Of a stretch of 64,000 nucleotides of DNA, positions 34,065-62,316 are shown piece by piece. How positions within the stretch are numbered: the stretch's first letter is position 1; each line of letters begins with the position of its first letter. A model generated the notes under the pieces. The model ran no database searches, had not been told where the DNA came from, and saw nothing but the letters and a program-made list of their open reading frames with translations. Where the stretch lies: the IMG/VR virus record IMGVR_UViG_3300042691_030776, one strand, 5' to 3'. The position numbers and the translations under genes are program-made. The stretch comes from a virus.

Positions 34065-34094
34065 AAAAAAAGGGCCTCCGGGCCCTTTACTTTT
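34065..34094. terminator. Intrinsic, probably bidirectional, terminator ending the late structural operon
   Basis: AAAGGGCC-TCCG-GGCCCTTT hairpin flanked by an A-run and a T-rich tract. Confidence 0.8.
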
Positions 34095-34114
34095 GGTACA
34101 TACTCTGTTATAAT
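34086..34114 (+). promoter_or_regulatory. Sigma70-type extended -10 promoter of the rightward modification operon
   Basis: TTTACT-N17-TATAAT with TGn, 5 nt before ATG 34120. Confidence 0.7.
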
Positions 34115-34119
34115 GGAGT

Positions 34120-34431
34120 ATGACCTTGGACACTGAAAAACTCACACAAGAAATCAAGAGCCGTTTTGATCACGCTACTCAAAAGAAGCTCTTAAAAGAG
34201 AAATATCAAAGCAAAATGACTTTTGCCTACAGCGGAGGCATGTGGTGTGCAGGAGCCGAACTGCTGACTTTGCTACAGGCCTGCCCCACTGAAGATGCTG
34301 TACTTTTAGATGTGTACGATACTCCAGTTCGAGTCAATGTGCTCGAGCTACAGCATCTAGCACATGATCGCTGGCAAGAACAACTCACGGCTTGGATGAT
34401 AGAGCTAGAAACCCTGAGCAAAAATCGATGA
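34120..34431 (+). CDS. Hypothetical protein (103 aa)
   Basis: First gene after the promoter; ATGA-coupled to the next gene. Confidence 0.75.
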   Translation: MTLDTEKLTQEIKSRFDHATQKKLLKEKYQSKMTFAYSGGMWCAGAELLTLLQACPTEDAVLLDVYDTPVRVNVLELQHLAHDRWQEQLTAWMIELETLSKNR

Positions 34432-35249
34432 CTCGTGGTGCCGTATTATTCGCATTTAACAATGATCGCGTTGACTATGTGAGTCAGGCACAGTGGTCTG
34501 CACCTCGTATCACAAGACATCTTAGATTACCAGTTACCTTGATCACCGATCAAGCACCCAACGATGTGTCAATGTTTGATCAAGTAATCATACGTGAGAG
34601 TCGGTCAGGAGGAACACGCAAGTTTGATCATATGAATGCGGATTCTTCAGCCACCTGGTTCAACAGAGGACGTTGTAGAGCATTCGATGTTAGCCCCTAC
34701 GATGAAACATTGGTACTAGATACTGATTACATTGTAGCATCGGATAGACTGCGGATTTTGTTTGATTGCGAGCAAGATTTGTTATGTCATAGAGAAGTGC
34801 TAGACGTCACAGACCGTAGGAACTTTGCTAGAGATACTAGATTTGGAGAAACAGAGTTTCCAATGTGGTGGGCCACTGTGTTGTATTTCCGACGCACACA
34901 CACCGCAGAATCTGTTTTCGATATGATGAACATGATCGAAGATAACTGGTACCACTATAGTCGTCTTTACAAGTTCAATCAGGAACCTTATCGTAACGAC
35001 TATGCCATCAGCATAGCACTCAACACAGTGTACGGACATTTACCAGCGGCAGTGCCTAGTATTCCGTGGCCGTTGTTCACAAGTTTTTATGATGTGTATC
35101 TGAACCAGCTGGAAGATGACGTGTTTCAACTCAACTATGTACGCATGGTGGACAATCAAGCACGACATTTCCGAATGCTACTGCGTGACTGTGACCTGCA
35201 TGTGATGAACAAACCTGACTTGGGGAAAATCTGTGGCAGTAGAATTTGA
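34428..35249 (+). CDS. GT-A fold glycosyltransferase-like protein (GT8-like)
   Basis: SPYDETLVLDTDY DxD motif, late HVMNK; start moved to the ATGA overlap at 34428. Confidence 0.65.
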   Translation: MTRGAVLFAFNNDRVDYVSQAQWSAPRITRHLRLPVTLITDQAPNDVSMFDQVIIRESRSGGTRKFDHMNADSSATWFNRGRCRAFDVSPYDETLVLDTDYIVASDRLRILFDCEQDLLCHREVLDVTDRRNFARDTRFGETEFPMWWATVLYFRRTHTAESVFDMMNMIEDNWYHYSRLYKFNQEPYRNDYAISIALNTVYGHLPAAVPSIPWPLFTSFYDVYLNQLEDDVFQLNYVRMVDNQARHFRMLLRDCDLHVMNKPDLGKICGSRI

Positions 35250-36063
35250 ACGCGGTTATCTAATACTGGCATCAAACAATGGCCAAGATGACTATGTGGC
35301 CTGTGCTCGTGCTTTGGCTAAAAGTCTACGTTACTGGATTCCTGACTGCAAGATTTGTTTGGTCACCGATGCCGATGAGCACGATCCTGTGTTTGATATT
35401 GTGAGACCTTTTCCTTACGGTGATCAAGATCCCAATGGCAAATGGAAACTCAGCAATGACTGGCAGGCATTTCATGCTAGTCCCTTTAGAGAAACCATCA
35501 AGCTAGAAGCAGACACAGTGATAGTAGAGAACATTGATCACTGGTGGGCATGGTTTGAACATCGTGATGTTGTTGTGAGTCGCGGTATTAAAAACTATCT
35601 CAACGAGTCTAGCCAATCAAGAGTGTATCGTAGATTGTTTGATGACAACGAGTTGCCCGACGTATACAATGCTGTGACTTATTGGAGACTGAGTCAGACC
35701 GCAGCCGAGTTCTTTTATTTGGTACGATTGTTTTTTGAGCAGTGGCCCACGGCAAGACAAACATTAAAGTATTGTGATTCCGTATCCGCCAACACAGACA
35801 TGATCTATGCCATGGTTGCCAAGTACATGGGAGTAGAACGAGTGACATTACCCAGTGACTGGCCTGCAATGACGCACATGAAACCTGCTGTGAACTTTTT
35901 AAAAACAGACGCTAGACCCTGGACTGCCGAAATGGTATGGGAACTAGTCGAAGGTAGATTGAGAATCAACACAGTAGAGCAACAGGGCGTTGTGCATTAT
36001 CATCACAAGGCTTTTGCCAAAGAACTAGAGGAACATTATGGACGCCTTTTGGCAAGCCGCTAA
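35233..36063 (+). CDS. GT-A fold glycosyltransferase-like protein, paralogue of the upstream gene
   Basis: SPFRETIKLEADT (ExD variant), THMKP, VVHYHHK. Confidence 0.6.
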   Translation: MAVEFERGYLILASNNGQDDYVACARALAKSLRYWIPDCKICLVTDADEHDPVFDIVRPFPYGDQDPNGKWKLSNDWQAFHASPFRETIKLEADTVIVENIDHWWAWFEHRDVVVSRGIKNYLNESSQSRVYRRLFDDNELPDVYNAVTYWRLSQTAAEFFYLVRLFFEQWPTARQTLKYCDSVSANTDMIYAMVAKYMGVERVTLPSDWPAMTHMKPAVNFLKTDARPWTAEMVWELVEGRLRINTVEQQGVVHYHHKAFAKELEEHYGRLLASR

Positions 36064-36382
36064 CTCGCACGATTGGGTTCAGCCCGAAGCTAGACAGGAG
36101 TTTAGGCTCTACTATGATGACACAGGAAATGTGTTATACTACAGCATGGAAGATTTACCAGGCACATTCCTTGTCATTGATCGATTGACATTTGATCAAC
36201 AACGATTTGATATCCGAATCAAGGATGGTAAAATCGTAAAGCTGAATCATCCGGCCAGTTGGAAACTGGCGCCCGCCGACTCAGGAACCGCTTGCCATCC
36301 ACAAGATGTTTCTTTGGTAGTGGGCGAAACAGCACACGACAAACAATATTGGGAAGTGAAAACAACTTATGAATCAGATTGA
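36038..36382 (+). CDS. Hypothetical protein (114 aa)
   Basis: GAGG RBS; overlaps both neighbours within the operon. Confidence 0.7.
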   Translation: MDAFWQAANSHDWVQPEARQEFRLYYDDTGNVLYYSMEDLPGTFLVIDRLTFDQQRFDIRIKDGKIVKLNHPASWKLAPADSGTACHPQDVSLVVGETAHDKQYWEVKTTYESD

Positions 36383-37298
36383 CATAGCAGACTTAGACTG
36401 CATTTATTTGAGTTACGACGAACCTCAAAAGGAAGAGTTTTGGGTACGCATCAAGAACATGGTTCCTTGGGCCAAACGTGTAGATGGAGTCAAAGGATCT
36501 GACGCCGCACACAAAGCCGCGGCCGATGCCAGCGAAACAGAACGATTTATACTTGTTGACGGCGACAACTTACCTGATGAACGTTTTTTCAATCTTACGT
36601 TAGAATATCACAGTGATGAATGGGAGCGAGCAGTATATCGTTGGCGAGCTCGCAATCACATCAACGGGCTTATGTACGGTAATGGCGGCATTAGTAGTTG
36701 GACACGAGAGTTTGTATGGAACATGAAAACACACGAAAACACCGATGGCCGAACAGAAACTGAAGTAGAGTTTTGTTTTGATCCCTTGTACTGGCCCATG
36801 TACGATTGCTACTCTACCACATATCCCAATGGATCACCGTTCCATGCCTGGCGTGCCGGCTTCCGTGAAGGTGTAAAAATGTGCTTGGATCGTGGCAAAA
36901 AGCCTACGGTGAGCGAGTTTAAAGATCGTGTGCATAAACGAAACTTTGATCATCTCTCTATCTGGCACAATGTGGGCTGTGATGTAGAAAATGGTTTCTG
37001 GGCCATCGCCGGAGCACGGCAAGGCACATACATGACCATGCTCAGCGAATGGGATCATCGAGAAGTTCAGAACTTTGATTGTCTTAAAAACATTTGGGAA
37101 GCAGTGGCCGCGCCTAGGGAGCCAGCAGATCTCATTGACCAATATCATGAACCATTACTGACGCAGTTAGGACTACCCATGGCCTTCATGCCTCCGTTCC
37201 AGAGTGCATTCTTCAAAGATCATTACAGGTCAAACTGGCATAATCGTGGTGTAATGACTCGAGAGATTGATGTTATCCGGAGCCAAGAAGGATGGTAA
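36369..37298 (+). CDS. GT-A/GT2-like glycosyltransferase
   Basis: LDCIYLSYDEP, AAHKAAA, RFILVDGDN DxD motif. Confidence 0.65.
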   Translation: MNQIDIADLDCIYLSYDEPQKEEFWVRIKNMVPWAKRVDGVKGSDAAHKAAADASETERFILVDGDNLPDERFFNLTLEYHSDEWERAVYRWRARNHINGLMYGNGGISSWTREFVWNMKTHENTDGRTETEVEFCFDPLYWPMYDCYSTTYPNGSPFHAWRAGFREGVKMCLDRGKKPTVSEFKDRVHKRNFDHLSIWHNVGCDVENGFWAIAGARQGTYMTMLSEWDHREVQNFDCLKNIWEAVAAPREPADLIDQYHEPLLTQLGLPMAFMPPFQSAFFKDHYRSNWHNRGVMTREIDVIRSQEGW

Positions 37299-38287
37299 TC
37301 CTGGTTTACACTAGAGATCGATTAATATGGAATCACTCTGAAATGTTAATCGATCTGTGTAAGGCAATGAGCATAGACGATGACATTGTGATAGATCTCA
37401 ACAGCGAAGGCTGCGACTGCAAAGACATAGGCTTATACGATCTCATTGATCAGTGTGCTAAGAAGTTTGATTACGACATATCAAAGATTTCAATACACAC
37501 CAACAACGTATTAGAACGTCACGAAAAGATCAATATAAAAACATCTTTTACTTGGAGTCTAATGAGAAGAGAAGCTAAAATTCACGCCAACGAACCACAG
37601 GTCAAACAATCTACACTCAAACACTTTGGTAGATTCATTGGAAGAAGTAATGCTCCTCGATTGATACTTAGCACTTACCTGGATGAACATCACCCAGAAA
37701 AAACTCTAGGAACTTTTCATTACAATCCGGAAGATGATTTTCACAAAGATTTTGCGGGTCTGGAGTCTATAATAAATGATTTCCAAATAACTAACATAGA
37801 ATCACATGCTAGATTTTTAGCATCCTGTCCGAGATCTGTCAGCAATCAAAACTTTAGATTTCAAGTAGGATCACCAGACGATCACTATACGCAGATGCTG
37901 GCCGGAGACAGGAATCAGTTTGTGAACTTGTATTCGAGTGTCTTTGTAGACATCGTGTCGGAATCCTTTTACAATGGTAATACATTCTTTGTCACCGAAA
38001 AAACCTATAGGCCAATGCTTTGCCTCACACCTTTTATCATTCAAGGCCCAACAGGATTTTTAAAAAATCTCAAAAACTTTGGATTCAAGACCTTTGACAA
38101 ATGGTGGGACGAAGGCTATGACGAAGATCCTCCTGCCTGGGCTATTAAAGAAATAATAAAAGTCATTGAGCACTTGGCTTCTAAGTCGCAGTCCGAACTT
38201 CGAGCCATGCTACTGGACATGCAAGATGTGTTAGCGCACAATAGAAATCTGATAATCGAGATGGATAAAAAACATGTTACAAAATAA
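37292..38287 (+). CDS. GT10-like (GT-B) glycosyltransferase paralogue 1
   Basis: DIVSES...FVTEKTYRP...PF...GFKTF..WDEGYD, resembling the alpha-1,3-fucosyltransferase motif (EN...Y[VI]TEK). Confidence 0.55.
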   Translation: MVILVYTRDRLIWNHSEMLIDLCKAMSIDDDIVIDLNSEGCDCKDIGLYDLIDQCAKKFDYDISKISIHTNNVLERHEKINIKTSFTWSLMRREAKIHANEPQVKQSTLKHFGRFIGRSNAPRLILSTYLDEHHPEKTLGTFHYNPEDDFHKDFAGLESIINDFQITNIESHARFLASCPRSVSNQNFRFQVGSPDDHYTQMLAGDRNQFVNLYSSVFVDIVSESFYNGNTFFVTEKTYRPMLCLTPFIIQGPTGFLKNLKNFGFKTFDKWWDEGYDEDPPAWAIKEIIKVIEHLASKSQSELRAMLLDMQDVLAHNRNLIIEMDKKHVTK

Positions 38288-39698
38288 AGGCGACGAAGTT
38301 ACTACAGATTTTAAATCAAAGTTTCTCAGCGACGCTGAACGAATGAAGCAACAACTGGACTCAGTGAGTCCCAGCATGTGTTTGGCCAAGTGGAAACAAG
38401 TAAGTCTACACCTAACAACAGGACATACCAATAGCTGTTATCATCCTCCCTTGCACAAGATACGAATCGAAGACATACAACGAAGCCCATCGGGCATTCA
38501 CAACACTGAGCATAAAAAACAACAAAGAAAACTCATGCTAGAAGGCACACGCCCCGGGGAATGTCAGTACTGTTGGACCATGGAAGACAACGGCAAGCTC
38601 AGTGATCGACACTATCGTTCGGGTGAGCCCTGGGCAGCCAAAGACTTTGAAAAAATCACACAGGCACCTTGGGACCAGGATGCTATTCCCAGCTACGTCG
38701 AAGTCAACTTCAATTCGGCGTGTAATCTAAAGTGCAGTTATTGTAGTCCACAGTTCAGTTCTAGCTGGATGGATGAAGCAGAACGTGAGGGCGCATTCCC
38801 TACATCAACTCCACACAATGATCCTGCTTACTTTTCAGGCGAACGCAGACCCATACCCAACAGAGAAGATAACCCTTATGTAGATGCATTTTGGGAATGG
38901 TGGCCTACCTTGTATCCTGAGCTGGAACATTTTCGAATGACTGGCGGCGAACCGCTGATGGATAAAAACACCTATCGCGTGTTTGACTATGTACTCACAC
39001 ACAACAACCCCAAGCTACATCTAAATGTCACATCAAACTTTTCAGTAGACGAAAAACTCTGGCAAAGATATCTTGGCTATGTGAAGATGTTGTGCGAAAA
39101 AGAAAAAGTTGAACACTTCATGCAGTATGTAAGTCTCGATGCATGGATGGACAAGGCCGAATACATTCGAAATGGATTGGATTTTAGATTGTTATGGGAT
39201 CGCGTCAATCAGTTCCTTACAGAGATTCCTGGACGTTCTAGTATCACCTTTATTGTTACCATGAACAACTTGTCTGTGACTAGTTTTCAAGATCTCATGG
39301 TAGCGATACTGGGACTAAGACAAATCTATTCAACGACATATCAGAGAGTATGGTTTGACACTCCTGTGCTACGCACACCAACTTGGCAGAGCATGCAACT
39401 GCTGCCAGAGAGCTATGCAGACATGTTAGAATCTACCTGGGTCTGGATGATGAAAAATCTTGAAACTGAAGAAACACGTTTCAAAGGATTTAAAGATTAC
39501 GAACTCAGCAGATTAGACAGAGACATTGTTTGGATGCGTGACGGCGCCAAACTAGACCCAGACTATGTGCGTAGACAAAAAGCAGACTTCTACAGATTCT
39601 TCAATGAACATGACAGACGTCGTGGCACAAGATTTTTAAAGGTATTTCCTGAAATGGTTGAGTGGTGGGTAGATTGCGGAAACTGGAGTAAACAATGA
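38274..39698 (+). CDS. Radical SAM enzyme with N-terminal Twitch module (1)
   Basis: CNLKCSYC, TGGEP; N-terminal CLAKW...SCYH...CQYC. Confidence 0.9.
   Translation: MLQNKGDEVTTDFKSKFLSDAERMKQQLDSVSPSMCLAKWKQVSLHLTTGHTNSCYHPPLHKIRIEDIQRSPSGIHNTEHKKQQRKLMLEGTRPGECQYCWTMEDNGKLSDRHYRSGEPWAAKDFEKITQAPWDQDAIPSYVEVNFNSACNLKCSYCSPQFSSSWMDEAEREGAFPTSTPHNDPAYFSGERRPIPNREDNPYVDAFWEWWPTLYPELEHFRMTGGEPLMDKNTYRVFDYVLTHNNPKLHLNVTSNFSVDEKLWQRYLGYVKMLCEKEKVEHFMQYVSLDAWMDKAEYIRNGLDFRLLWDRVNQFLTEIPGRSSITFIVTMNNLSVTSFQDLMVAILGLRQIYSTTYQRVWFDTPVLRTPTWQSMQLLPESYADMLESTWVWMMKNLETEETRFKGFKDYELSRLDRDIVWMRDGAKLDPDYVRRQKADFYRFFNEHDRRRGTRFLKVFPEMVEWWVDCGNWSKQ
39674..39698 (+). repeat. Direct repeat, copy 1
   Basis: TTGCGGAAACTGGAGTAAACAATGA, 24/25 identical to 40611-40635. 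Confidence 0.85.
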
Positions 39699-40585
39699 AA
39701 ACCTTAGAGATAACTACGCAGATCGGATGCCCGTTGATGTGTACCTTTTGTCCGCAAGACAAGTTGAGACAGGCCTACACAGATCCTATAAAAAAAATGT
39801 CCGTAGAAACGTTTGCCACCGTACTATCTAAACTACCCAAAGATGTACGCATAGTGTTTGCTGGTTACACCGAACCCTGGGCCAATGATTTATGTAATGA
39901 TTTTTTAGAATTATCTTTACAACAAGGATTTGATGTCAGTATCTACACTACGTTATACAACATAACTCCTGCACGGTGTGATCAACTAATCGTATTATTA
40001 AAACAATACAAACTGCAGATTAAAGAGTTTTGGGTACATCTGCCAGATCAAAATAAAAATATGGTTGGGTTCAGATATAGCAAAGATTTTGAATATGCGC
40101 TTGACTGTGTTTCTCGGCTTAAAAATGTAAATTACATGACCATGGATTCAGAATCTAAAATGGATCCTACTATACAAACAAATATTGTGCCGCAGTCTTG
40201 GTATCTGCATACACGAGCAAACAATTTAACAATCAAAAATATTAAACAACAACCAGTGAACTCGCCGCCTCGTTATGAATTTATTGTGGAATGTACACGC
40301 AACAAAGATTACCATTCCAATATATTATTGCCCAATGGTGATGTGATACTTTGTTGTATGGACTATGGACTTAAACATACTTTGGGAAATTTATTGACAC
40401 AATCATACGATGAAATTTTACACGGCCGCGAACTAAAACGATTAACTGAACTAAACAATCAAATAGGTTTTTCAGAAGAAACATTATGCAAATCGTGCAA
40501 TGATGCATATTGTCATACCCCATGGAATAATAAAAAAGTCTGGGATATTGTGGCCAAAATTGACCCGGATAGCCTGGGACTATAA
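39695..40585 (+). CDS. Radical SAM enzyme with C-terminal SPASM/Twitch domain
   Basis: CPLMCTFC; C-terminal C...ILCCMDY...LGNL...CKSC; AT-rich. Confidence 0.9.
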   Translation: MKTLEITTQIGCPLMCTFCPQDKLRQAYTDPIKKMSVETFATVLSKLPKDVRIVFAGYTEPWANDLCNDFLELSLQQGFDVSIYTTLYNITPARCDQLIVLLKQYKLQIKEFWVHLPDQNKNMVGFRYSKDFEYALDCVSRLKNVNYMTMDSESKMDPTIQTNIVPQSWYLHTRANNLTIKNIKQQPVNSPPRYEFIVECTRNKDYHSNILLPNGDVILCCMDYGLKHTLGNLLTQSYDEILHGRELKRLTELNNQIGFSEETLCKSCNDAYCHTPWNNKKVWDIVAKIDPDSLGL

Positions 40586-40610
40586 AATGCCAAGATTTTT
40601 AAAAACATTT

Positions 40611-40635
40611 TTGCGGACACTGGAGTAAACAATGA
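40611..40635 (+). repeat. Direct repeat, copy 2
   Basis: TTGCGGACACTGGAGTAAACAATGA; CAAGATTTTTAAA is also shared (39628-39640 and 40591-40603). Confidence 0.85.
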
Positions 40636-41657
40636 CCACTGAATTTATTGGAGTCTATTTTTCTGAAGATATGGAATATTCTTCTGAAGAGCGATTTTGC
40701 AGTGCTGATATTCTGAATCAGATCAATTTGGCATTCCCAAATGAAAAAAATCTATTGGTCAATCTTACCTGGTTTGGGCCACAGTTTGACAACGATACCT
40801 GGGATCAGTTGTTGCATCTGGAAAATAACAAAATACATTTTGATAACGTATTCTTCTTGGCCACGGTTGACCCAGCATATCTGAATGTAACTGAATTGCA
40901 ACAAGTAAAAAACATGGTCCAGGCTTTGAAAGTTTTTTATTTAGGTAACTTTGACAGTGAATACCAGTTTAATTTTTTTGCACCTATAACTGCAAAAAAG
41001 TTTAAAAAATATGATGATAATCAACTGTTATTAGATAATCTAAAATATTTGTTTGTTAACTATAATAGAAAACCCAAACAACATCGTGTTGAGTTTGTTA
41101 AAAAATTAATAGCTCAAGACTTGTCTAGTCTAGGAGTTATCACTTTGGGAACAGATGCCACAAATGATCTTTTGTTGACCATTGGTGAAAAAGACGAAGA
41201 CTATCTTGATTACGGAAATTCCAAAGTGCATTGGGGGAAGTTTGGAGTACCACACGACATGTACAGTTTACATCGTATGGACATTTGGAATCATACCTTT
41301 TTGTACATCAATGGTGCAACAGAATTCAACCCAGTCAATGATTTATTCTGCCAGCAAGACACATTCAAACCCATGATTGGGCTACGTCCATTTGTGATAA
41401 ACGGTGTACAAAAAACCTATCGATGGCTCAGGAATCATGGTTTTAAAACTTTTAACCAGTACTGGTCACACATTGACATTGAAAACGGAGATGTACACGA
41501 TACGTTGATAGAGTTAATCAAGTATTTAAAAGCAACTCCGTCGGAAGATATCATCTCCATGTACAATGACATGTTGCCAGATTTGCAACACAATAAACAA
41601 AGATTTTATGAATTTGCCAAGGAACAAAAATACAAAATGGAACATCTATTTCAGTGA
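40632..41657 (+). CDS. GT10-like glycosyltransferase paralogue 2 (variant motif)
   Basis: YNRKPKQHR; ATE...FCQQDTFKP...RPF...GFKTF (TEK replaced by QQD). Confidence 0.5.
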   Translation: MTTEFIGVYFSEDMEYSSEERFCSADILNQINLAFPNEKNLLVNLTWFGPQFDNDTWDQLLHLENNKIHFDNVFFLATVDPAYLNVTELQQVKNMVQALKVFYLGNFDSEYQFNFFAPITAKKFKKYDDNQLLLDNLKYLFVNYNRKPKQHRVEFVKKLIAQDLSSLGVITLGTDATNDLLLTIGEKDEDYLDYGNSKVHWGKFGVPHDMYSLHRMDIWNHTFLYINGATEFNPVNDLFCQQDTFKPMIGLRPFVINGVQKTYRWLRNHGFKTFNQYWSHIDIENGDVHDTLIELIKYLKATPSEDIISMYNDMLPDLQHNKQRFYEFAKEQKYKMEHLFQ

Positions 41658-41674
41658 GATGGATATAAGATATC

Positions 41675-45400: not shown

Positions 45401-45401
45401 T

Positions 45402-49851: not shown

Positions 49852-49949
49852 AATGGTTACGCAACTTGATCAACAGGATCCGACTCGAAATACGCTATCG
49901 TAAAAAACTCAAAGAACTTCGCAAACGAGATCCTTTTATTTACAAATGA
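49848..49949 (+). CDS. 33-aa basic micro-protein MKWLRNLINRIRLEIRYRKKLKELRKRDPFIYK
   Basis: Not in the ORF track; fills the gap exactly, with ATGA overlaps at both ends. Confidence 0.75.
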   Translation: MKWLRNLINRIRLEIRYRKKLKELRKRDPFIYK

Positions 49950-52184: not shown

Positions 52185-53209
52185 AGGTAAGACTCTAGCC
52201 CACCTTTGCGTCGAATGTCTTGTGTACAGCAACTCACTCCACCGTCCCAGAAGTAGCTGTGTCGCAGTTCACTAATGATTGGCTCAATGCGATGTTTTTT
52301 GCAGAAATCAAAAACGTCTTTGTTGTAAGCTGAAAAGATAACATGACTTTCGTCTAGCACAAGACAGTTTACATCAAACACAGTTTCGCTGACAAAGCCA
52401 ACCCAACTGCTTAGATATTTGTCTACAAAGGCAGAAAACTCAGCAGTCGGTGTTTGTCCTTGTACATACCAAGCGCCATTGAAGTTTTCTTCTTTAAACT
52501 TGCCAACTTCCATGGCAGCCCAGATAGAACTATCCCAAATCTTGCACACATCCCAACTAGGAAAATCTCTAGCCAAGTCTAAGTTCACATCATGTTTACT
52601 GCTCAGTATTACTCCGGGCTTGAGTATGGCAAATACAGCATCACCGTGACCGTCTGTGATAGCTTCATGGATGCGATATTCGGATCCTAGTACGTTGTCT
52701 ACAATCCAACGGGTTTGTTCAGGCTTCAAAAAGTCTGAGTTGTCAAAGAATACATCACGACCCACACGCACAATACAACTAGCCGACGCACCGTTGAGTA
52801 TGCAGTTGGGATCCCAAGTTCCGTTATGTGGATCAATGACTTGATCTCCGTATGAAGAGCAAATATCATTGAGCTCGGCTACAGGTAACACACGTAGCAG
52901 TTTATTACCCAAAGTAATCTGCCAGTCTCTTGGTGTAAGAGGTGGGAGAGGCGCTCCTTCTCCAGATGTTTGCCAAGTTTGAAACTGATCTCGGTTGGGT
53001 AAGCTAGGTCTGCGTACAGTGGCACCATAGGTTTCTATAGTACGTTGTAGGTTATCAAGGTCTTCGGCTGTCTCTGCTAAGATCTGTTGTAGTTGATTTC
53101 TAACCTGAAGGTTGTCAATAAAATCAAAATAGTCTGGATCATAGGCTCTTCCTACTATGACTTCTTCTAAAGGTTGCCAACTGGTGTAGCTGTTTACGAT
53201 ATTGTTCAT
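52181..53209 (-). CDS. Amidinotransferase (StrB1/glycine amidinotransferase family)
   Basis: NSYTSWQPLEEVIVG, TPRD, GHGD (catalytic His), DGGVSCCTQD (catalytic Cys). Confidence 0.85.
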   Translation of the reverse strand: MNNIVNSYTSWQPLEEVIVGRAYDPDYFDFIDNLQVRNQLQQILAETAEDLDNLQRTIETYGATVRRPSLPNRDQFQTWQTSGEGAPLPPLTPRDWQITLGNKLLRVLPVAELNDICSSYGDQVIDPHNGTWDPNCILNGASASCIVRVGRDVFFDNSDFLKPEQTRWIVDNVLGSEYRIHEAITDGHGDAVFAILKPGVILSSKHDVNLDLARDFPSWDVCKIWDSSIWAAMEVGKFKEENFNGAWYVQGQTPTAEFSAFVDKYLSSWVGFVSETVFDVNCLVLDESHVIFSAYNKDVFDFCKKHRIEPIISELRHSYFWDGGVSCCTQDIRRKGGLESYL

Positions 53210-54393
53210 TGTTTTGTAAGTTCTCTGATCAAACTATTTAAACGATCCTGTTTGTTGCTTAAAAATAATCTTTGGTTGTGCAACAGATCATCACGGCAGT
53301 CAATATAAAGTTGATGCAAGTCAACTTGTGTTACTAACCGTTCTATTTCAGTACAGGCCATATCCCATCGACGAGTATTGTTGGTCTCTTGATCGTAGCT
53401 GTGGTCAATCACATGATCAAATATTCGATAACCCATTGACTTTAACTGTGCAATACTGCCTGCAGGCGCTAATAATAAAAACGGCTGACAGTTTTTAATA
53501 GGTTTAAATGTTTTTTCGGTCAGAAACGTTCCGCCGCTTTGATCAGCATCTAAATGTGTTTCGAGTATGATGTTGAGATAACTGTCATTGAAGTGTTGAT
53601 GTACCGTGGTGGCATACAGATTGTGCGTGGCTGAATCTAACTCATCAGCACGGAAAGGTCCGCTGTTTAGAAATTGATGTGTATCGGCACGGAGTCCATT
53701 AAATTGATCAACTTCTATTGGATTATCGATGTGTTCATCGTCGTTGATCAACTGTTGCGTATTGTAAGAAAAATATCCTGATTGATGCAAACCTTGACGC
53801 CAGAGTCGAGCCATGGTAGTAGCTCTCCACCATTTGTGTGTTCGAACTAACGCGGTGTACTTCTTTGTTCTTTTAATGCTGTGATCAAACGCTATGGGAG
53901 GTTCTTGGTTGCGTAGTTGATACAAGCATTCGTCATCAACAAAATGTGTGAAGTTCTTGATCTGTTGAGCCGCTGAGTTCGCACTGGTAAACTTGATACG
54001 ATCAGGATCAATGTCTTGATTAGAAAACTGTGACAGTATGTGTTGCTGTATACGAAAAGGGTTGTCACCTTCGCTGTAGAAGAACCATAGTGTAAGACTT
54101 TTAGTCCTGAGTTTTTCTCTAATAAACGTTGGTAATAGTTCAAACCAGTTGATATCAAAGTCAAAATAACTGAGACTGATAGGGTATAGTGTTTCTTTGG
54201 TGGCCTGTGTCCACTCTACCAACTGATATTCAACACCAGCACGATCAAGATAATCTAAAAAGTGTACAGGTTCACTGTAGGGCCATTGTCTGCTGAACTG
54301 CCACCATTCAGATGTGTAAGGTTCGGCCTCCCATCTAGCGAGATTAGGATAAGGTTTGTTGTTTACAATACGGTCAACGCAGAAAGTTACCAT
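53206..54393 (-). CDS. GT10-like glycosyltransferase paralogue 5
   Basis: NIILET...FLTEKTFKP...QPF...GYRIF..IDHSYD. Confidence 0.55.
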   Translation of the reverse strand: MVTFCVDRIVNNKPYPNLARWEAEPYTSEWWQFSRQWPYSEPVHFLDYLDRAGVEYQLVEWTQATKETLYPISLSYFDFDINWFELLPTFIREKLRTKSLTLWFFYSEGDNPFRIQQHILSQFSNQDIDPDRIKFTSANSAAQQIKNFTHFVDDECLYQLRNQEPPIAFDHSIKRTKKYTALVRTHKWWRATTMARLWRQGLHQSGYFSYNTQQLINDDEHIDNPIEVDQFNGLRADTHQFLNSGPFRADELDSATHNLYATTVHQHFNDSYLNIILETHLDADQSGGTFLTEKTFKPIKNCQPFLLLAPAGSIAQLKSMGYRIFDHVIDHSYDQETNNTRRWDMACTEIERLVTQVDLHQLYIDCRDDLLHNQRLFLSNKQDRLNSLIRELTKQ

Positions 54394-55448
54394 TGTTTGA
54401 TCATGTCAGTGAGTTCTTGCCATAACAAACTTTCAAACTCTCTAGAGTAAAACCAATGTAAGTTGTGCTCTACAACAGGTGCCAAGTGTTGTTGTAGTTG
54501 AGCTTTTTCTTTAGCACTCATTGACTCAAGATCTGCTAAGAGTTTGCCTATACGAGATATTCGTAGATCATCGTCTTTGTCGTCGTAATCTTCGTTCCAA
54601 AAATCACCAAAGGTCTTAAAACCATACCGCCGCAGATACTCTAGGCTACCTTGACAGGATACTAACACAAACGGTTGTTGCATAACGATAGGGCGGAATG
54701 TTTTTTCTGTCAGGTGTTGTCTGCGTCCAGAGTACACTGTTTCTGTAACCACATTGAGCAGGCTTCGATTAGCCAAGTCCCACATATCTATTCTATGACT
54801 GCTACCAGCATGATTAGCTCCATGATCAATGATCAATGGTAGGTTGACGTGCCCCAATGGGATATCGTATTCTTGACATAATTCGGCTACGGTTTTATTT
54901 TCATAAGGACAGCGTTCAGGAAAACTAATGAAGTTTGAGTCAATGAGTTCTCGATCAACTAACTCGTTTAACAATGCCACTCTATGATGTCTCCGACCAC
55001 CGATGATGTTGTTGGGGCAAAGGAATGTTCTTTCAATCTTTCTATCTAGAAATGGTTGTGATAGAAATGTATGATTGTAACCTCGATACCAGTCCAGTGC
55101 GGCCCATGCATGAAAGAAGTAATACCCAGAAGTCATGTTATAAGTATCGCATGTCCACTTTACATATTCGCTGTCATACTCTGAAGTTATTAACCAAAAT
55201 GGACCTTTATTCCACTTATTGCGATATATTGGAACAAACTGATCAAATAGTATTTTTACTCGATCCAGATGCAAAGGTTCTTGATCCCAAAAAAAGATTC
55301 GACCTTGGCTTTCATTTAACAACGGGTGATTTTTTATATCTTCAAAACTAGTAGACCCAAACGGATCAAACCAATGTAGCCCTATATCAGCTCGGTGTTG
55401 CAGAGCCGACACAAATGTGTTATAATATATTTCATCGATACGAATCAT
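54387..55448 (-). CDS. GT10-like glycosyltransferase paralogue 6
   Basis: NVVTET...HLTEKTFRP...QPF...GFKTF..WNEDYD. Confidence 0.55.
   Translation of the reverse strand: MIRIDEIYYNTFVSALQHRADIGLHWFDPFGSTSFEDIKNHPLLNESQGRIFFWDQEPLHLDRVKILFDQFVPIYRNKWNKGPFWLITSEYDSEYVKWTCDTYNMTSGYYFFHAWAALDWYRGYNHTFLSQPFLDRKIERTFLCPNNIIGGRRHHRVALLNELVDRELIDSNFISFPERCPYENKTVAELCQEYDIPLGHVNLPLIIDHGANHAGSSHRIDMWDLANRSLLNVVTETVYSGRRQHLTEKTFRPIVMQQPFVLVSCQGSLEYLRRYGFKTFGDFWNEDYDDKDDDLRISRIGKLLADLESMSAKEKAQLQQHLAPVVEHNLHWFYSREFESLLWQELTDMIKQW
55398..55426 (+). promoter_or_regulatory. Sigma70-type extended -10 promoter embedded antisense within the neighbouring CDS
   Basis: TTGCAG-N17-TATAAT with TGn, 20 nt before ATG 55447. 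Confidence 0.6.
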
Positions 55449-57063
55449 GTTTGACGTCTTTTATCTAACCACTCCAACTTATCGTTGGCCTCACGAGCGC
55501 CAAGCGAATAGTATTGAACACGCTTGTGAACTCAGCAGGACAAGATACTTATGGATAGTCGATGGGCTGAATGACTATTCTAACTTTGATTGGTTATGGG
55601 AACCCGTACCTTGGGAAGCACATCAAACTCATGTATGGCCTAGCCAACATCAGGAAAACGGTGGAACATATCTTGTACCCAAAACAGGCGTTAGCGAGAT
55701 AAACAGAAAGCATTGTCCTGTACCGCGTATTGGATCAGTGCCACGTATTGGAATAGATCACGGCAACGGGCTAGGCATAATGTGCAAGGAAAAATCTCGT
55801 TATATCTCTGACTACCTTGGCACCATGCGACGAGTTCTCAGCAAATGCAAACATGAATATGTCTGGATAGTCAGCAGTGTGTGTGACTACAGCACTTTTG
55901 ATTTTACATGGCACCCCAGCGAGTGGCAACAAGATATGCTACATGTATTTGCCAGTAACGAACAACAGTTCGGAGATACATTCTACGTACACGTTCCTAG
56001 CTTCCTTGCCAAAACAGAAAGTCTGGCCATACTAGAATGGTTTGAGACACTGAACTTTATCACTGATCGACCTGTGCCTAGGCTTCCAGTTCCTGTGTAT
56101 CGCCATGGTCACGACAGTCAAGTTCCTGCTGTATGGGAATATAACTTCCAGGACCCAGTGGTACTGTTTGTCAACAACGAATCTACTCCGGTAAACAATA
56201 TTCCTACTATGAGTCTTTGGAGAGAAAAAACCAAAACCATAGTACCATTGACACCGGGCGCCAGCTCTGTGCTAGTTCCCAGAGAAGCCAAGAACCATCT
56301 CAAGAAGCAGTTATACGATTATCCTCACGTTGATAAAACGCACAAAGATCTTGGAGAAGATCGTCCGTTGGATATAGTGTTTATTAGCAACGGAGAGCCC
56401 AATGCTGAACGCAACTGGACTACTCTATTAGAGGCCACTTACATGAAACCAAACAATGTGGTTCGCAGTGACGGAGTAAATGGGCGAGCGGCTGCCTATC
56501 ATGCCGCAGCCAATGCCAGCGGCACTGATTGGTTTTTTGCTGTGTTTGCCAAGCTCAGAGTCAATAGTGATTTTGATTGGTCCTGGCAGCCCGACCGCAT
56601 GCAACAGGCCAAACACTACATCTTTCATGCAAAAAATCCTGTAAATGGACTGATTTACGGACACCAGGCCATGATTGCTTACAATAAGAGATTAGTGTTA
56701 GCCAACCCAGGGCGCGGCCTGGACTTTACCTTAGATGATGAACATGAAGTAGTACCTATATTTTCTGGCACAGCAGAGTATGCTCATTCCAAATGGTCAG
56801 CATGGCGTACAGCATTCCGGGAGTGTTTGAAACTCAAAGGTCAGGAAGATGTAGAAAGTAAGTATCGCTTGAACAAGTGGTTGAACTTTGACAACACTGA
56901 TCAACACATAGTCAACGAAGATTGGAGCCGATGGGGTGCAGAGGATGCTGTGGCTTATTATGAAGAAGTAGACGGCAACTTTGATGCTCTCAAGAAGAGC
57001 TATGAATGGTCCTGGTTGGCCAGCTATGCCTTGCTCAAGCGCAATCTAACACCTGATCAATAA
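55447..57063 (+). CDS. Multi-repeat GT-A-like protein
   Basis: C-terminal domain homologous to 36369-37298 (LDIVFISNGEP, DGVNGRAAAYHAAA, AWRTAFRECLK); three W.V...FD[WF].W.P repeats. Confidence 0.6.
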   Translation: MFDVFYLTTPTYRWPHERQANSIEHACELSRTRYLWIVDGLNDYSNFDWLWEPVPWEAHQTHVWPSQHQENGGTYLVPKTGVSEINRKHCPVPRIGSVPRIGIDHGNGLGIMCKEKSRYISDYLGTMRRVLSKCKHEYVWIVSSVCDYSTFDFTWHPSEWQQDMLHVFASNEQQFGDTFYVHVPSFLAKTESLAILEWFETLNFITDRPVPRLPVPVYRHGHDSQVPAVWEYNFQDPVVLFVNNESTPVNNIPTMSLWREKTKTIVPLTPGASSVLVPREAKNHLKKQLYDYPHVDKTHKDLGEDRPLDIVFISNGEPNAERNWTTLLEATYMKPNNVVRSDGVNGRAAAYHAAANASGTDWFFAVFAKLRVNSDFDWSWQPDRMQQAKHYIFHAKNPVNGLIYGHQAMIAYNKRLVLANPGRGLDFTLDDEHEVVPIFSGTAEYAHSKWSAWRTAFRECLKLKGQEDVESKYRLNKWLNFDNTDQHIVNEDWSRWGAEDAVAYYEEVDGNFDALKKSYEWSWLASYALLKRNLTPDQ

Positions 57064-58129
57064 CATACTCAACTTCAAGATCTGTTAGTTCAGGGTACAA
57101 CGGCAGCGTCAACACACGGCGGCTCAGCGCCGAAGCACAACTCAAAATGTCTGGACCTTGATATTGTCGAAAGGTACCAATCTCGTGCAGTGGTTGTGTG
57201 TAATGTATTTTAGTTTCTATCTTCCGTACAGCAAGGTTTTTTTGTAGTATGTCTCTGTTGTTGACATCTATTACAAACTTGTGGTAAGCGTGATCGTGTC
57301 GGTTGTCTTGATCAATCAAACAACGGATATCCGATTGTTTTAATCGTTCAATCCAATAGCCAGCAATCTTCTGTCTACGTGTTTGCCATGCGTCAATGTA
57401 TCGAGTCTTGACCAACATGTGGGCACAATCAAGTTCACTCATACGACTGTTGGTTCCTGTTTCGTTGTGCGTGGTTTTACCATTGTCTCTCCAAGTTCGT
57501 ACAAAATCAAATATATCACGCTCGTTGGTCACAACAGCACCCCCGTTGCCATAGCAGGGTAGATTTTTCATAGGATCAAAACTGAGTGCGGCTGCCTTGC
57601 CAATACGCTGACAATCCGCGGCCAGCCAATGTTGAGCCGCATCTTCAATGACAATCTTATCGTTGAGAGTCCATTGTCTCCAGGTGCTGACGTCGCCCAT
57701 GTGTGTGATACCGGCACCGTACAGCCCAATCAGGACCACAGCTTGATAGCTGACATCGGGAATCTTTTTTATGTCGATCACACCATTGTGATCAGTGTCG
57801 ATAAAATGCACATTCCATCCTGCACGAATGAAAGCATTGGCAGTGGCCGCATAAGTCAAGCTAGGGATTAAAACTGTGGGAGGGCTGGGAGCTAGAGTAT
57901 CTGCGGCATAGTATTCAGCAATGGCTTCTAGTGCAGAAGTACCTGAGTGTACGCACACCGCATACTTTGCATGATTTTTTTTAGCTAGCCATGCTTCGAA
58001 CTCAGTGGTGTTATTACCGTTCATCAAGCTACCACTGCGAAGAACTTCGTCAGTGGCATCCAGTATCTCCTGCCGGAGATTGTTATACTGTTTTTTTAGA
58101 CCAGTAAACGGAATTGTTAAGCCACTCAT
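57035..58129 (-). CDS. DegT/DnrJ/EryC1/StrS PLP-dependent sugar aminotransferase
   Basis: SGTSAL, IEDAAQ, SFDPMKNL (PLP lysine), GNGGAVVT, GTNSRM, LTLPLYP. Confidence 0.92.
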   Translation of the reverse strand: MSGLTIPFTGLKKQYNNLRQEILDATDEVLRSGSLMNGNNTTEFEAWLAKKNHAKYAVCVHSGTSALEAIAEYYAADTLAPSPPTVLIPSLTYAATANAFIRAGWNVHFIDTDHNGVIDIKKIPDVSYQAVVLIGLYGAGITHMGDVSTWRQWTLNDKIVIEDAAQHWLAADCQRIGKAAALSFDPMKNLPCYGNGGAVVTNERDIFDFVRTWRDNGKTTHNETGTNSRMSELDCAHMLVKTRYIDAWQTRRQKIAGYWIERLKQSDIRCLIDQDNRHDHAYHKFVIDVNNRDILQKNLAVRKIETKIHYTQPLHEIGTFRQYQGPDILSCASALSRRVLTLPLYPELTDLEVEYVIDQVLDCA

Positions 58130-59057
58130 AATACCTTTGGAAGCCTTCTTCTACATCTACTTTGGGATCGTAGCCAAAATCTCTACGTGCGGCGTCAATG
58201 TTTAGAGCACCTCGACTAGGAAAATCAGCATCTTTGTCTCTGACTTCTATTGTGCCTTGCCCTACTATTTTTACAGCAAGGTTAGCCGCATCTAACAGCG
58301 TCCGACTATGACTCTTGGTGATGTTGTAGGTTTTGTTTGCAGTGTTATCGCTGAGAGCTGAGGACACTATACCATCGGCGGCGTCTTCTACATAGGTAAA
58401 ATCTAAAGTTTCGTTGGCACCGTTGACTTTGATTACACCGTTACGCATAGCAGTCAACAGAAACTTTGAAACAACACGATCTTCAACATCGTATTCTCCG
58501 TATACAGCGGAAGGACGAATAATGACATGATCAAAAAGATCACGCCTACTATAATCTCGGACAAGCCATTCTCCAGCAAGTTTCATGATACCGTATTGCC
58601 CTTGTGGACGGCACACAGCATCTTCTGTGACATCATCTGTGAAGTCTCCATAGACCATACTAGATGATATGTACACAAACTTATTTACACTGTGTTTCTT
58701 CGAAGCTTCTAGTAGATTGAGTAATCCTTCGCTCATGGCACGTGAGCCAATCATAGGATTTACATTCACTACTTTCTGACGGGGGAAGCTGGCCAGATGT
58801 ACTACAATGTCTGGACGATATGTTCTGAACATCCAGTCTATACCATCTTGATCAGCGATATCAATACCATGAACTCTGACATCGGGTATCTTTTTCCTAC
58901 GTTCCATCATAAGATAGTTTAGCTCGTCCTGTGGGACCAATCCATAGTTGGTTTTGGTATCCGTGACTGATACTTCATGTCCCTGGGTCATCAGACGTTG
59001 CACTACATTATGTCCGATCAATCCTAGACCGCCTGTTACTAAAATTTTTTGTTTCAT
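58083..59057 (-). CDS. NAD-dependent NDP-sugar epimerase/dehydratase (extended SDR)
   Basis: VTGGLGLIG, SSSMVYG, YGIMK (YxxxK), DFTYVED. Confidence 0.92.
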   Translation of the reverse strand: MKQKILVTGGLGLIGHNVVQRLMTQGHEVSVTDTKTNYGLVPQDELNYLMMERRKKIPDVRVHGIDIADQDGIDWMFRTYRPDIVVHLASFPRQKVVNVNPMIGSRAMSEGLLNLLEASKKHSVNKFVYISSSMVYGDFTDDVTEDAVCRPQGQYGIMKLAGEWLVRDYSRRDLFDHVIIRPSAVYGEYDVEDRVVSKFLLTAMRNGVIKVNGANETLDFTYVEDAADGIVSSALSDNTANKTYNITKSHSRTLLDAANLAVKIVGQGTIEVRDKDADFPSRGALNIDAARRDFGYDPKVDVEEGFQRYYEWLNNSVYWSKKTV

Positions 59058-60178
59058 ATCTGTTTCTCTTTAAGAGCATCCTCGATGTATTGTATAGCAA
59101 TATTTTCTTTGTTTTTATACAGTTCTTGTATCAATGTATAGTTTTGATCAAATCGAGACTTACATCGATGCCATTGGGCCAATGCTACTTCTCTATTTTC
59201 AAGTATTAGTCTATTAGAATTTATAGCAGTAACCATACGAGTATAGTGATCTTCAATGGTATCATAACCGTGATCAATCACGTCGTCAAATAGATCAAAT
59301 CCTAGTTTTCTCAAGTGATTTATTGACCCTGCCATACCAATGTAGATTGGAAAATTATAACCGTATACGCTATTGAGATATTTTTCTGTAATGATTCCAG
59401 ACCTATTGATAAAAACAGTTTCGGTCATGATGTCAACTATACTGTTACCAAATATATTGCGCAGATATCTATCAAAATTTGTGTGCGATCCTCTTGCAAT
59501 ACCTGCAGAATCTAGAAATTCATATTTGTTCTGGAAATACCCATCTACTGTTTTAACTTTATTAAATCCTTGTTGTAGCACAGGATAAAGAGAGGATATA
59601 GAATGAAGATATTCGTATTTGTTAATTTTAAAATATTTCAAAAATGATTTCCAGTCAGAATGCGGCATTATGGCTGCCGGATCTAATCTTATGTAACCAT
59701 GAGGTATATTTTCACCTAGCAACATCATTACACAGATGTTTCTATTCATTCGAATATTATTATTTAAACACACCCAGTGCCAGCCTTCGGAAAAAGTTTT
59801 AGCATCCACTGGATCAAGTTGATGATATTGGTTTATTGGATTTAGTAAAAAGTCTTCTCCCCATCGAATAATGTTTAAATTTTTGATTGCTGGAACTACT
59901 TCTTGCAAAAAAGGACAAACAGTCAACAGATAAAACATGTGATTGGGATTATTTTTTACAAGTTTTAACAAAACTTCAATCATTGTTTCAGATCGTCGAT
60001 CAACCGGAGTCAACAAAAATTCATCGTCGCCCCAATGGTCAACAGTCATTATGACAACATTTTTTTTACTTCGATCCCAGTCTTGATTTATAAAATTAAT
60101 AATACTTACATCATGATGAAATTTTGTTTTGAGATAGTCTTTGACACAACGAAAGGAGTTTCGAAAATCATAGTTCAT
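59054..60178 (-). CDS. GT10-like glycosyltransferase paralogue 7
   Basis: DIMTET...IITEKYLNS...FP...GFDLF..IDHGYD; AT-rich. Confidence 0.5.
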   Translation of the reverse strand: MNYDFRNSFRCVKDYLKTKFHHDVSIINFINQDWDRSKKNVVIMTVDHWGDDEFLLTPVDRRSETMIEVLLKLVKNNPNHMFYLLTVCPFLQEVVPAIKNLNIIRWGEDFLLNPINQYHQLDPVDAKTFSEGWHWVCLNNNIRMNRNICVMMLLGENIPHGYIRLDPAAIMPHSDWKSFLKYFKINKYEYLHSISSLYPVLQQGFNKVKTVDGYFQNKYEFLDSAGIARGSHTNFDRYLRNIFGNSIVDIMTETVFINRSGIITEKYLNSVYGYNFPIYIGMAGSINHLRKLGFDLFDDVIDHGYDTIEDHYTRMVTAINSNRLILENREVALAQWHRCKSRFDQNYTLIQELYKNKENIAIQYIEDALKEKQI

Positions 60179-60416
60179 ATTGATTCGCCCATCTCAGATA
60201 ATACTCCGTTGCTTTGATGTCTTCTAACTCACCGCGTATTGTAACTCTATGTCCAAACGTATTATGGTCGGCATGTGTGTAATATTTAAGGTCGGTCGCA
60301 TGGGCCATGACCCATTTTCCTTTGTCAGTTTGTTGCCATTCCCATATAGGTTGGGCGATGTAGATATCAAGGTCTTCTACATCGCCCATGGTGAAAGAAT
60401 GAAATATGACCTTCAT
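60168..60416 (-). CDS. Hypothetical protein
   Basis: First gene of the leftward operon; ATG 6 nt after the -10 box. Confidence 0.7.
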   Translation of the reverse strand: MKVIFHSFTMGDVEDLDIYIAQPIWEWQQTDKGKWVMAHATDLKYYTHADHNTFGHRVTIRGELEDIKATEYYLRWANQYEL

Positions 60417-60422
60417 AGTCAT

Positions 60423-60451
60423 ATTTTAACAGAGATGTTAAGAGTTTGCAA
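60423..60451 (-). promoter_or_regulatory. Sigma70-type extended -10 promoter of the leftward modification operon
   Basis: Minus strand TTGCAA-N17-TAAAAT with TGn. Confidence 0.65.
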
Positions 60452-62099: not shown

Positions 62100-62101
62100 G
62101 G

Positions 62102-62305: not shown

Positions 62306-62310
62306 ACATC

Positions 62311-62316
62311 TATTTA
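62311..62316 (-). promoter_or_regulatory. Late promoter TAAATA
   Basis: Downstream of a terminator, directly before an ATG. Confidence 0.55.

Follow-up and report, generated by a model that had tools for sequence, protein, structure and literature searches.

Soluble enzymes encoded by the virus build virion glycans in the cytoplasm in several systems, namely the capsid glycans of chloroviruses, the fibril glycans of mimivirus and the virion glycosylation of mycobacteriophages, and we know of none among these systems that has radical S-adenosylmethionine (SAM) arrays, an amidinotransferase or a carbamoyltransferase. For pelagimyophages, the "host recognition cluster" in the tail-fibre region was described as carrying cassettes of glycosyltransferase and radical SAM genes (PMC7029224). 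Here we surveyed and analyzed a locus of 27 densely packed genes (34120-60422) in the IMG/VR virus record IMGVR_UViG_3300042691_030776, of which the whole stretch of 64,000 nucleotides that was analyzed is called the window. The enzyme families, a GT-B fold, the sugar context of the radical SAM family N_Twi_rSAM and the lack of membrane proteins indicate that the locus is very probably a pathway for the building and tailoring of glycans. Taken as a whole, the locus is best explained by a tailored glycan that is assembled in the cytoplasm on a phage protein, with a likelihood that we place slightly short of even.

The window is part of the genome of an uncultured T4-type jumbo myophage, and the DNA runs containing this stretch are from freshwater and lake metagenomes. 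On the 5′ side of the locus PHROG matches were found to gp46/47-like nuclease subunits, a gp55-type late sigma factor, baseplate hub and wedge and tail-fibre proteins, the baseplate wedge being about 33% identical to the wedges of Atu_ph07, 121Q and similar jumbo phages. A collinear IMG/VR contig (G001; 343,632 bp, estimated to be 99% complete) has 80-95% amino acid identity per gene. Tail-fibre genes flank the locus upstream and thyX downstream. The plus arm (34120-51433) and the minus arm (51417-60422) are convergent with a tail-to-tail overlap of 17 nt (51417-51433), one plus-strand gene (55447-57063) is embedded within the minus arm, and almost every gene junction is overlapping or shorter than 20 nt. 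An earlier, sequence-only reading of this DNA had described two convergent arms meeting at this overlap, one inverted gene and the position between the tail-fibre genes and thyX, and these agree with the open reading frame (ORF) map and with the PHROG and Pfam matches of the flanks; the end of the minus arm, placed there at 60416, is corrected to 60422. It had also seen no flippase, polymerase or polytopic membrane protein. This agrees with our survey, in which no flippase, polymerase or membrane protein was found in the locus and a Kyte-Doolittle scan gave no transmembrane-like segments in the locus proteins, the only exception being a stretch of borderline score within the barrel of a radical SAM enzyme. 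GenBank phages gave no megablast match to the locus.

Enzyme families and the predicted pathway

Six radical SAM enzymes were recovered by Pfam and NCBIfam, which is the number given by the sequence-only reading. Five of them (38274-39698, 42681-44033, 44015-45400, 45393-46610 and 47502-48800, all on the plus strand) are full-length members of NCBIfam NF033640 (N_Twi_rSAM) with E-values of 6e-92, 2e-89, 2e-124, 8e-102 and 4e-85, respectively, and with 286-416 bits at a curated cut-off of 170 bits. In these proteins the Pfam match to SPASM covers residues 7-108 and that to Radical_SAM about 122-317, so that the Fe-S twitch module precedes the barrel; the invariant cysteines of the twitch enzymes are C45, C64, C105 and C108, together with C159, C163 and C166 of the CxxxCxxC motif. 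The sixth enzyme (39695-40585, plus strand) has a C-terminal SPASM domain above the cut-off (E 4e-10), and its Radical_SAM match of 28.1 bits is just below the cut-off of 29.5.

The N_Twi_rSAM family has 10,555 clusters at 50% identity. The neighbours of its bacterial members include GT2, GT4, RmlD, SDR, a fusion with NDP-hexose C-methyltransferase, NTP_transferase, B12-radical SAM and GDSL-TPR, and of the 18 fused members tested, TPR or Sel1 repeats occur in eight and a GT2 domain in one. The TPR fusions are P0242, P0287, P0293, P0313, P0319, P0342 and P0375, the Sel1 fusion is P0272 and the GT2 fusion is P0312; one N_Twi_rSAM protein consists of two radical SAM units with TPRs between them. 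The GT2 fusion and the bacterial sugar-gene neighbours link the family to glycan tailoring, possibly on protein substrates. Models of SPASM/twitch peptide maturases also match weakly. Literature searches on radical SAM enzymes of jumbo phages and on N-terminal twitch domains gave no hits, and no reaction, substrate or paper was found in them for NF033640.

Seven proteins form a single paralogous family with the shared motif E-T...F-x-T-E-K-T-x-K-P...P-F...G and are named here TEK paralogues 1-7, of which 1-4 are on the plus strand (37292-38287, 40632-41657, 41675-42688 and 46607-47512) and 5-7 on the minus strand (53206-54393, 54387-55448 and 59054-60178). None of the seven has a match in Pfam (even at E 0.01), in PHROG or among the other CAZy-family hidden Markov models, and all 409 database relatives of the family are annotated as "hypothetical". 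The TEK profile gave nothing significant against PDB sequences, and tblastn of paralogue 5 (g53206) against GenBank phages gave none. The AlphaFold (AF2) model of g53206, with a predicted local distance difference test score (pLDDT) of 91, is a GT-B glycosyltransferase with two Rossmann-like domains, and paralogy links the other six proteins to it. All of the 50 best Foldseek and VIA matches of the model are GT-B enzymes; the top Foldseek match is T4 beta-glucosyltransferase (E 2.5e-4), and VIA-align gives a tie of H. pylori alpha1,3-fucosyltransferase (5zoi; Z 12.0), T4 beta-glucosyltransferase (11.8) and the exostosin EXTL3 (11.3), the sequence identity to the structural matches being 8-10%. 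The sequence-only reading had spoken of seven GT10-like proteins. Its count of seven paralogues stands and the GT-B fold fits it, while no Glyco_transf_10 Pfam match was found and the best fold is a tie; "GT10-like" is a fair term for the predicted fold and the motif, not for family membership. The motif resembles what we take to be the donor-binding block of GT10, which serves as a lead only. Among viral structures in BFVD, a TEK structural relative was seen in the metagenomic Mimivirus LCMiAC02 (TM 0.71), and another relative is fused to a UDP-glucose/GDP-mannose dehydrogenase domain.

The enzymes of amino-sugar, amidino and carbamoyl chemistry named by the sequence-only reading were all recovered. 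The DegT/PseC-type sugar aminotransferase, dependent on pyridoxal phosphate (57035-58129, minus strand), has a full-length Pfam match (E 2e-60; 205 bits over model positions 3-359 of 360). The SDR enzyme next to it, a nucleoside diphosphate (NDP)-sugar 4,6-dehydratase/epimerase (58083-59057, minus strand), is an SDR epimerase/dehydratase by Pfam (E 3e-42), and its best model is dTDP-glucose 4,6-dehydratase (E 5e-36, below the cut-off of that model). The carbamoyltransferase of NodU/CmcH/TobZ type (49946-51433, plus strand) has both Carbam_trans_N and Carbam_trans_C above the cut-offs, with 120.9 and 174.4 bits (Pfam E 2e-51 and 1e-34). The amidinotransferase g52181 (52181-53209, minus strand) has no Pfam match and is placed in the AGAT/StrB1/SxtG/HsvA family by PDB sequence matches, to AGAT with E 5e-16 over three aligned stretches and also to StrB1, SxtG and HsvA, and by the catalytic cysteine, where GGVSCC aligns with GGFHCW of AGAT. 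No sugar nucleotidyltransferase is encoded by the phage, so host NDP-sugars must be used. A saxitoxin-like pathway was considered for the SxtG- and SxtI-type enzymes and was dropped, since the other core enzyme types are absent and the 11 transferase-like genes indicate glycans.

Four proteins were called GT-A-like and one an SGNH hydrolase in the sequence-only reading, and in both cases the motifs were found again and no significant profile or PDB match was added to them. Two of the four (34392-35249 and 35233-36063, plus strand) are GT8/GT-A-like by motif only; they are paralogues of each other (E 5e-10) with a phrog_1903 match, a conserved ETIKLESD block in the alignment and a weak Mannosyl_trans3 match (E 0.12). 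The third, g36369 (36369-37298, plus strand), has the motifs YLSYDEP and IDGDN (DxD) and is a paralogue of the C-terminal domain of the fourth, the inverted gene g55447 (55447-57063, plus strand), whose 538-aa product combines a pair of Trp-rich FD(W/F)xW repeats with a C-terminal domain that is GT-A-like and lacks DxD. The set has a protein-atlas lead at 0.85 and otherwise motifs of DGD/ESD type only, with no significant Pfam match and no PDB match for 34392, 35233, 36369 and the C-terminus of 55447; in the protein atlas only viral clusters match g55447. The SGNH-like g51417 (51417-52232, minus strand) has the motifs GCS and DxxHP (as DDFHP) only, without a Pfam or PDB match for SGNH hydrolase, and its start is most likely the ATG at 52184 rather than the TTG at 52232. 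Profile searches of g55447, g36369 and g51417 against PDB sequences gave nothing significant.

A further protein of no known family is g48751 (48751-49851, plus strand; 366 aa). Its AF2 model (pLDDT 86) shows a beta-barrel like that of cyclophilins, with helices inserted at residues 65-180; Foldseek gave nothing for it, and the VIA matches were cyclophilins (Z 8-9.5) and the Pictet-Spenglerases McbB and KslB (Z 8.2-8.3). One protein-atlas search was without a usable lead and a second gave the cyclophilin-like match again, the profile gave nothing significant against PDB sequences, and tblastn against GenBank phages gave none. The cyclophilin-like likeness of the model may be taken as a weak lead. 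ThreeFoil, suggested by a weak PDB-sequence match, was not borne out by the AF2 model.

The order of the reactions is inferred from these enzyme families, as are the guanidino sugar, the chemistry of the radical enzymes and the acceptor. Host NDP-hexoses would be the starting material, which the SDR enzyme would convert into a 4-keto-6-deoxy intermediate for transamination by the DegT enzyme, and the amidinotransferase would possibly turn the resulting amine into a guanidino or amidino sugar. Up to seven GT-B (TEK) and up to four GT-A-like transferases would link the sugars, the NodU/TobZ-type enzyme would O-carbamoylate the product, and the five twitch and one SPASM radical SAM enzymes would edit it, for example by epimerisation, dehydration, oxidation or C-C bond formation, probably working with the transferases as transferase-plus-editor modules.

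Conservation, cassette variation and promoters

The sequence-only reading depended on co-conservation of these genes, and a neighbourhood survey of 52 related full-length loci confirmed it. A core of five twitch radical SAM enzymes, g48751, the carbamoyltransferase and g55447 is present in 50-52 of the 52 loci (each twitch radical SAM and g48751 in 52, g55447 in 51 and the carbamoyltransferase in 50), and g48751 alone retrieves at least 158 viral contigs of IMG/VR, many of which are 300-345 kb long. TEK paralogue 3 belongs to the core as well, paralogues 5-6 are in 48/52 loci and the amidinotransferase is in 36/52 with a median identity of 80%, while TEK paralogues 1, 2, 4 and 7 and the SGNH-like gene (2/52 loci) are accessory. 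Across the 52 loci the radical SAM enzymes are 49-73% identical (four of five 64-73%; the median for 47502-48800 is 73%) and the TEK transferases 32-42%.

When the window is compared with G001, its six extra genes are four TEK transferases, the C-SPASM radical SAM and the SGNH-like gene. TEK paralogue 1 is among those absent from G001, an unrelated 224-aa gene stands in G001 at the place of paralogue 7, and one radical SAM allele is only 51% identical between the two genomes, against 80-95% elsewhere. The C-SPASM radical SAM gene, found in 1/52 loci, forms an AT-rich accessory cassette with one TEK transferase gene (39695-41657; GC 0.358 in the 40-42 kb bin). Since G001 and almost every other related locus lack the two genes, this cassette is a recent insertion. 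Counted over its full length, G001 has nine genes of the NF033640 family and nine of the TEK family, and those that do not belong to the locus are scattered round the genome. A conserved tailoring core with a fluid set of transferases resembles surface-glycan loci and would fit a serotype-like diversification.

The closest cultured carrier is the Ralstonia phage RsoM2USA (MG752970, 343.8 kb), which has a reduced module in which all genes are annotated as "hypothetical". At its first site, after the giant virion protein, sheath and fibre-region genes, ORF349-354 include homologues of g34392 and g35233 (ORF353 and ORF352), of g36369 (ORF350, 37.5% identical) and of the 38274-type radical SAM (ORF349, 35%). 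The second site (ORF199-203) has a 42681-type radical SAM (50%), the carbamoyltransferase ORF199 (46%), three DUF6071 paralogues and a short peptide ending in DPFIYK, which is discussed below. No relation was found by hhalign between g48751 and ORF200 or ORF201. No homologues of the key unknown proteins were found in GenBank phages beyond RsoM2USA. The virion proteins of this phage confirmed by mass spectrometry include ORF361, ORF359 and ORF356 (PMC8504454).

Two structural genes on the 5′ side of the locus were also recorded. After the baseplate wedge gene, a single ORF of 4860 aa (16224-30806, plus strand) is 74% identical to its G001 counterpart and locally similar to ORF361 of RsoM2USA. 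The last late gene before the locus (33076-34047, plus strand) encodes a fibre-like protein with 32.8% Ser+Thr, a possible O-glycosylation target, although such a composition is common in fibres.

The first gene of the right arm (34120-34431, plus strand; 103 aa, no known family, G001 orthologue 88% identical) is preceded by an intrinsic terminator and an extended -10 promoter of sigma-70 type (34069-34114, plus strand). The terminator (34069-34088 plus a T-run) is predicted to end the late tail-fibre transcript, and the promoter TTTACT-17-TGtTATAAT (34086-34114) abuts it and stops 5 nt short of the initial ATG; G001 has this 70-nt segment at 100% identity, between divergent flanks. The first gene of the left arm (60168-60422, minus strand; 84 aa, no known family, G001 orthologue 91% identical) has an extended -10 sigma-70-type promoter TTGCAA-17-TGtTAAAAT (60423-60451, minus strand) in the 15-nt gap that follows thyX; this promoter is kept in G001 at 222150. 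The motif TGTTAWAAT occurs five times in the window, every time within the locus, and four of these copies stand just before the heads of both arms, the inverted g55447 (its own TGTTATAAT element is at 55418-55426) and g48751. The word ATAAATA, a likely core of the gp55-type late promoter (CATAAATA) by its sequence, has three copies in 64 kb, where about nine were expected; none is within the locus, and those at 12791-12797, 31575-31581 and 31600-31606 are each just upstream of a structural gene (wedge, fibre). These consensus matches, which are not proof, suggest that the locus has several promoters and is expressed by host RNA polymerase in the early or middle period. The locus would thus be expressed from sigma-70 extended -10 promoters of its own, either earlier than the late tail genes or independently of them.

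The remaining features are given here for completeness of the map. A 114-aa protein of no known family is encoded at 36038-36382 on the plus strand. Downstream of thyX an HNH homing-endonuclease gene (phrog_1314; 63204-63938, minus strand) lies near nucleotide-metabolism genes. A gap of 228 nt (62190-62420, minus strand) follows a strong terminator (62374-62356), and an alternative ATG at about 62303 opens a frame other than that of the listed ORF 61413-62189, the start of which is uncertain.

Proposed acceptor of the glycan and alternative explanations

The sequence-only reading had left the glycan on either the virion or the DNA; its sugar chemistry and soluble enzymes hold, the DNA branch is weakened and the virion is reached by inference only. 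We place the product on the virion tentatively, at somewhat less than an even chance, because of the position directly behind the fibre genes, which is kept in RsoM2USA, and because of the cassette variation between close relatives. The likeliest acceptor would be a virion protein, for example the adjacent fibres, the 4860-aa baseplate protein or the capsid, and the result would be a variable surface coat. Several points weigh against this explanation. No acceptor was found, nor a reaction for the NF033640 family, and the GT-A-like and SGNH-like calls are at the level of motifs only. The TPR/Sel1 fusions and an invariant peptide of the locus fit a protein or peptide substrate and do not say which of the two. 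The early or host-type promoters and the terminator appear to separate the locus from the late fibre genes, unlike what simple co-expression with the virion would give.

The peptide is a basic protein of 33 aa ending in ...LKELRKRDPFIYK (49848-49949, plus strand), whose gene has an ATGA overlap with both neighbouring genes. The sequence-only inventory gave the enzymes correctly and left this conserved ORF uncounted. It is present in 73/73 loci that contain the start of the carbamoyltransferase gene, 18 of the 33 alignment columns are invariant, including the ...ELRKRDPFIY block, and the C-terminal motif is far better kept than the surrounding enzymes. An unannotated ORF of RsoM2USA ending in ...IRKQDPFIYK, in the gap between ORF201 and ORF200 at about 125.9 kb of the record (L114:13800-13912, minus strand), is its counterpart. 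No Pfam family was found for the peptide; an identity of SxtK/DUF5989 type, considered for it, has no support, the peptide being without a Pfam match. A predicted complex of the carbamoyltransferase with the peptide scored 0.20, where the mark is 0.32. Its role may be that of a substrate or scaffold, or else of a small subunit.

If the peptide is the scaffold, it would serve as precursor or carrier, on which the twitch/SPASM radical SAM enzymes and the carbamoyltransferase would act and the glycosyltransferases after them, which we consider unlikely, and the outcome, equally doubtful, would be a glycosylated small molecule derived from the peptide or a modified peptide, following the logic of mycofactocin. 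In mycofactocin a radical SAM enzyme acts on the C-terminal Tyr and a glycosyltransferase then adds sugars. Presence in all 73 loci with the 18 invariant columns argues for such a scaffold, as does the retention of DPFIYK in RsoM2USA, where the rest of the peptide diverged and the neighbouring enzymes are at 46-50% identity; in both lineages the peptide accompanies the 42681-type radical SAM and the carbamoyltransferase. The weak matches to peptide-maturase models and the protein-binding repeats (TPR or Sel1) in eight of the 18 fused family members point in the same direction. Against it, Cys, Ser and Thr are all missing from the peptide, as is a variable region resembling a core, the bacterial N_Twi_rSAM members stand in sugar clusters without such a peptide, the peptide was absent beside the cyanophage carbamoyltransferases, and a small subunit or a device for coupling would be other possible roles for it. 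A more definite form, in which the twitch radical SAM enzymes first cross-link or oxidise the C-terminal Tyr/Lys of the peptide and the phage transferases then carry out carbamoylation, amidination and glycosylation during early infection, is by analogy rather improbable. If true, a peptide scaffold would be a virus-encoded analogue of mycofactocin- or pyrroloquinoline quinone (PQQ)-type biosynthesis, or a new protein-tag chemistry.

The early or host-type promoters bear on another explanation, in which the phage remodels the host envelope by early alteration of lipopolysaccharide, capsule or glycoprotein precursors, so that superinfection or the trapping of progeny on debris is blocked. Remodelling of this kind was suggested for the glycosyltransferases of the pelagimyophage host recognition clusters (PMC7029224), and this suggestion, the promoters and the cassette variation between close relatives speak for it. 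None of the 27 proteins is membrane-bound and the locus has no ligase, polyprenyl-phosphate transferase, Gtr-like gene, flippase or polymerase, so that the phage would have to pass every step into the host export machinery, which makes the explanation improbable.

The least likely alternative, that the transferases and tailoring enzymes put a complex glycan on the bases of the phage DNA as T-even and other phages do, has in its favour T4 beta-glucosyltransferase among the best TEK model matches (Foldseek E 2.5e-4; Z 11.8), the early-type promoters and the adjoining thyX, and it is nevertheless very unlikely given the absence of a hydroxymethylase, the strong avoidance of restriction sites in both genomes and the different transferase content of near-identical phages. 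The sequence-only reading had seen no base hydroxymethylase or TET-like gene in the window, and the first half of this extends to the 99%-complete relative G001, where neither PF00303 (the thymidylate-synthase-family hydroxymethylase, matched in control genomes) nor TGT/DpdA was present; the Tet/JBP search matched in no control genome and is uninformative. The word RCGCGY has no occurrence among the 380 CGCG of G001 or the 67 of the window. Only six hexamers are wholly absent from G001, namely the four RCGCGY words, AGCGCT (0 against 35 expected) and ATTAAT (0 against 32 expected), and the window has no AGCGCT and no GTGCAC. A bulky blanket modification of DNA should relax the avoidance of palindromes. 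The avoidance seen here would imply DNA exposed to restriction enzymes and thus disfavours such a modification. ATTAAT, absent from G001, has seven copies in the window; the sets of restriction sites that close relatives avoid are therefore not fully the same.

Significance and comparison with known systems

If assembly of a tailored glycan on a phage protein is right, abundant jumbo phages of freshwater and soil devote 5-8% of their genome to an uncharacterised glycan chemistry, and a variable glycan coat of the virion would bear on host range, on resistance to grazing and defence and on phage therapy against Ralstonia. The solving of one N_Twi_rSAM reaction would annotate thousands of genes, those of bacterial sugar clusters included. 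The partial module and the overlooked peptide in the cultured RsoM2USA make the question directly testable. The present analysis adds the reduced module of RsoM2USA and its peptide, a promoter motif, the fusions with TPR and GT2 and the argument from restriction avoidance. A paper on moraphages (PMC12619734), which cites virus-encoded glycosylation systems, concerns another lineage.

The families DegT, StrB1 type and TobZ type, which also serve aminoglycoside and streptidine tailoring, are all found within 9 kb here, whereas the locus has no cyclitol synthase or other aminoglycoside core enzyme and is a tail-proximal phage operon with 11 transferase-like genes. The TEK proteins share the GT-B fold with GT10 alpha1,3-fucosyltransferase and T4 beta-glucosyltransferase (GT63), which are top structural matches, and differ in that they have no Pfam GT10 match and that EXT/GT47 and further GT-B enzymes score within one Z unit of these matches, as a tie. 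With the NF033640 entry the twitch enzymes have in common an N-terminal Cys-rich twitch/SPASM module followed by a CxxxCxxC barrel; that family is a catalogue entry only, while here five copies stand in one operon and nine in a related genome.

RsoM2USA differs from the window in having no TEK GT-B family, in the division of its module between two sites, in three DUF6071 paralogues where the window has g48751, and in giving no amidinotransferase or DegT match in the two regions examined. Cyanophage S-CAM1 carries a carbamoyltransferase with heptose/sugar genes between its fibre genes. The host recognition cluster of pelagimyophages and cyanomyophages is likewise a variable island of the tail-fibre region in T4-like aquatic myophages, with glycosyltransferases, sugar-nucleotide genes and radical SAM (PMC7029224); it was described at the level of annotation, in phages of about 150-200 kb where GT8-type enzymes dominate, and is without the TEK family, the amidinotransferase, the DPFIYK peptide or a proposed radical SAM chemistry. 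The locus shares soluble transferases and sugar-nucleotide enzymes with the glycosylation systems of chloroviruses, mimivirus and mycobacteriophages, and the attachment of its product to the virion is putative.

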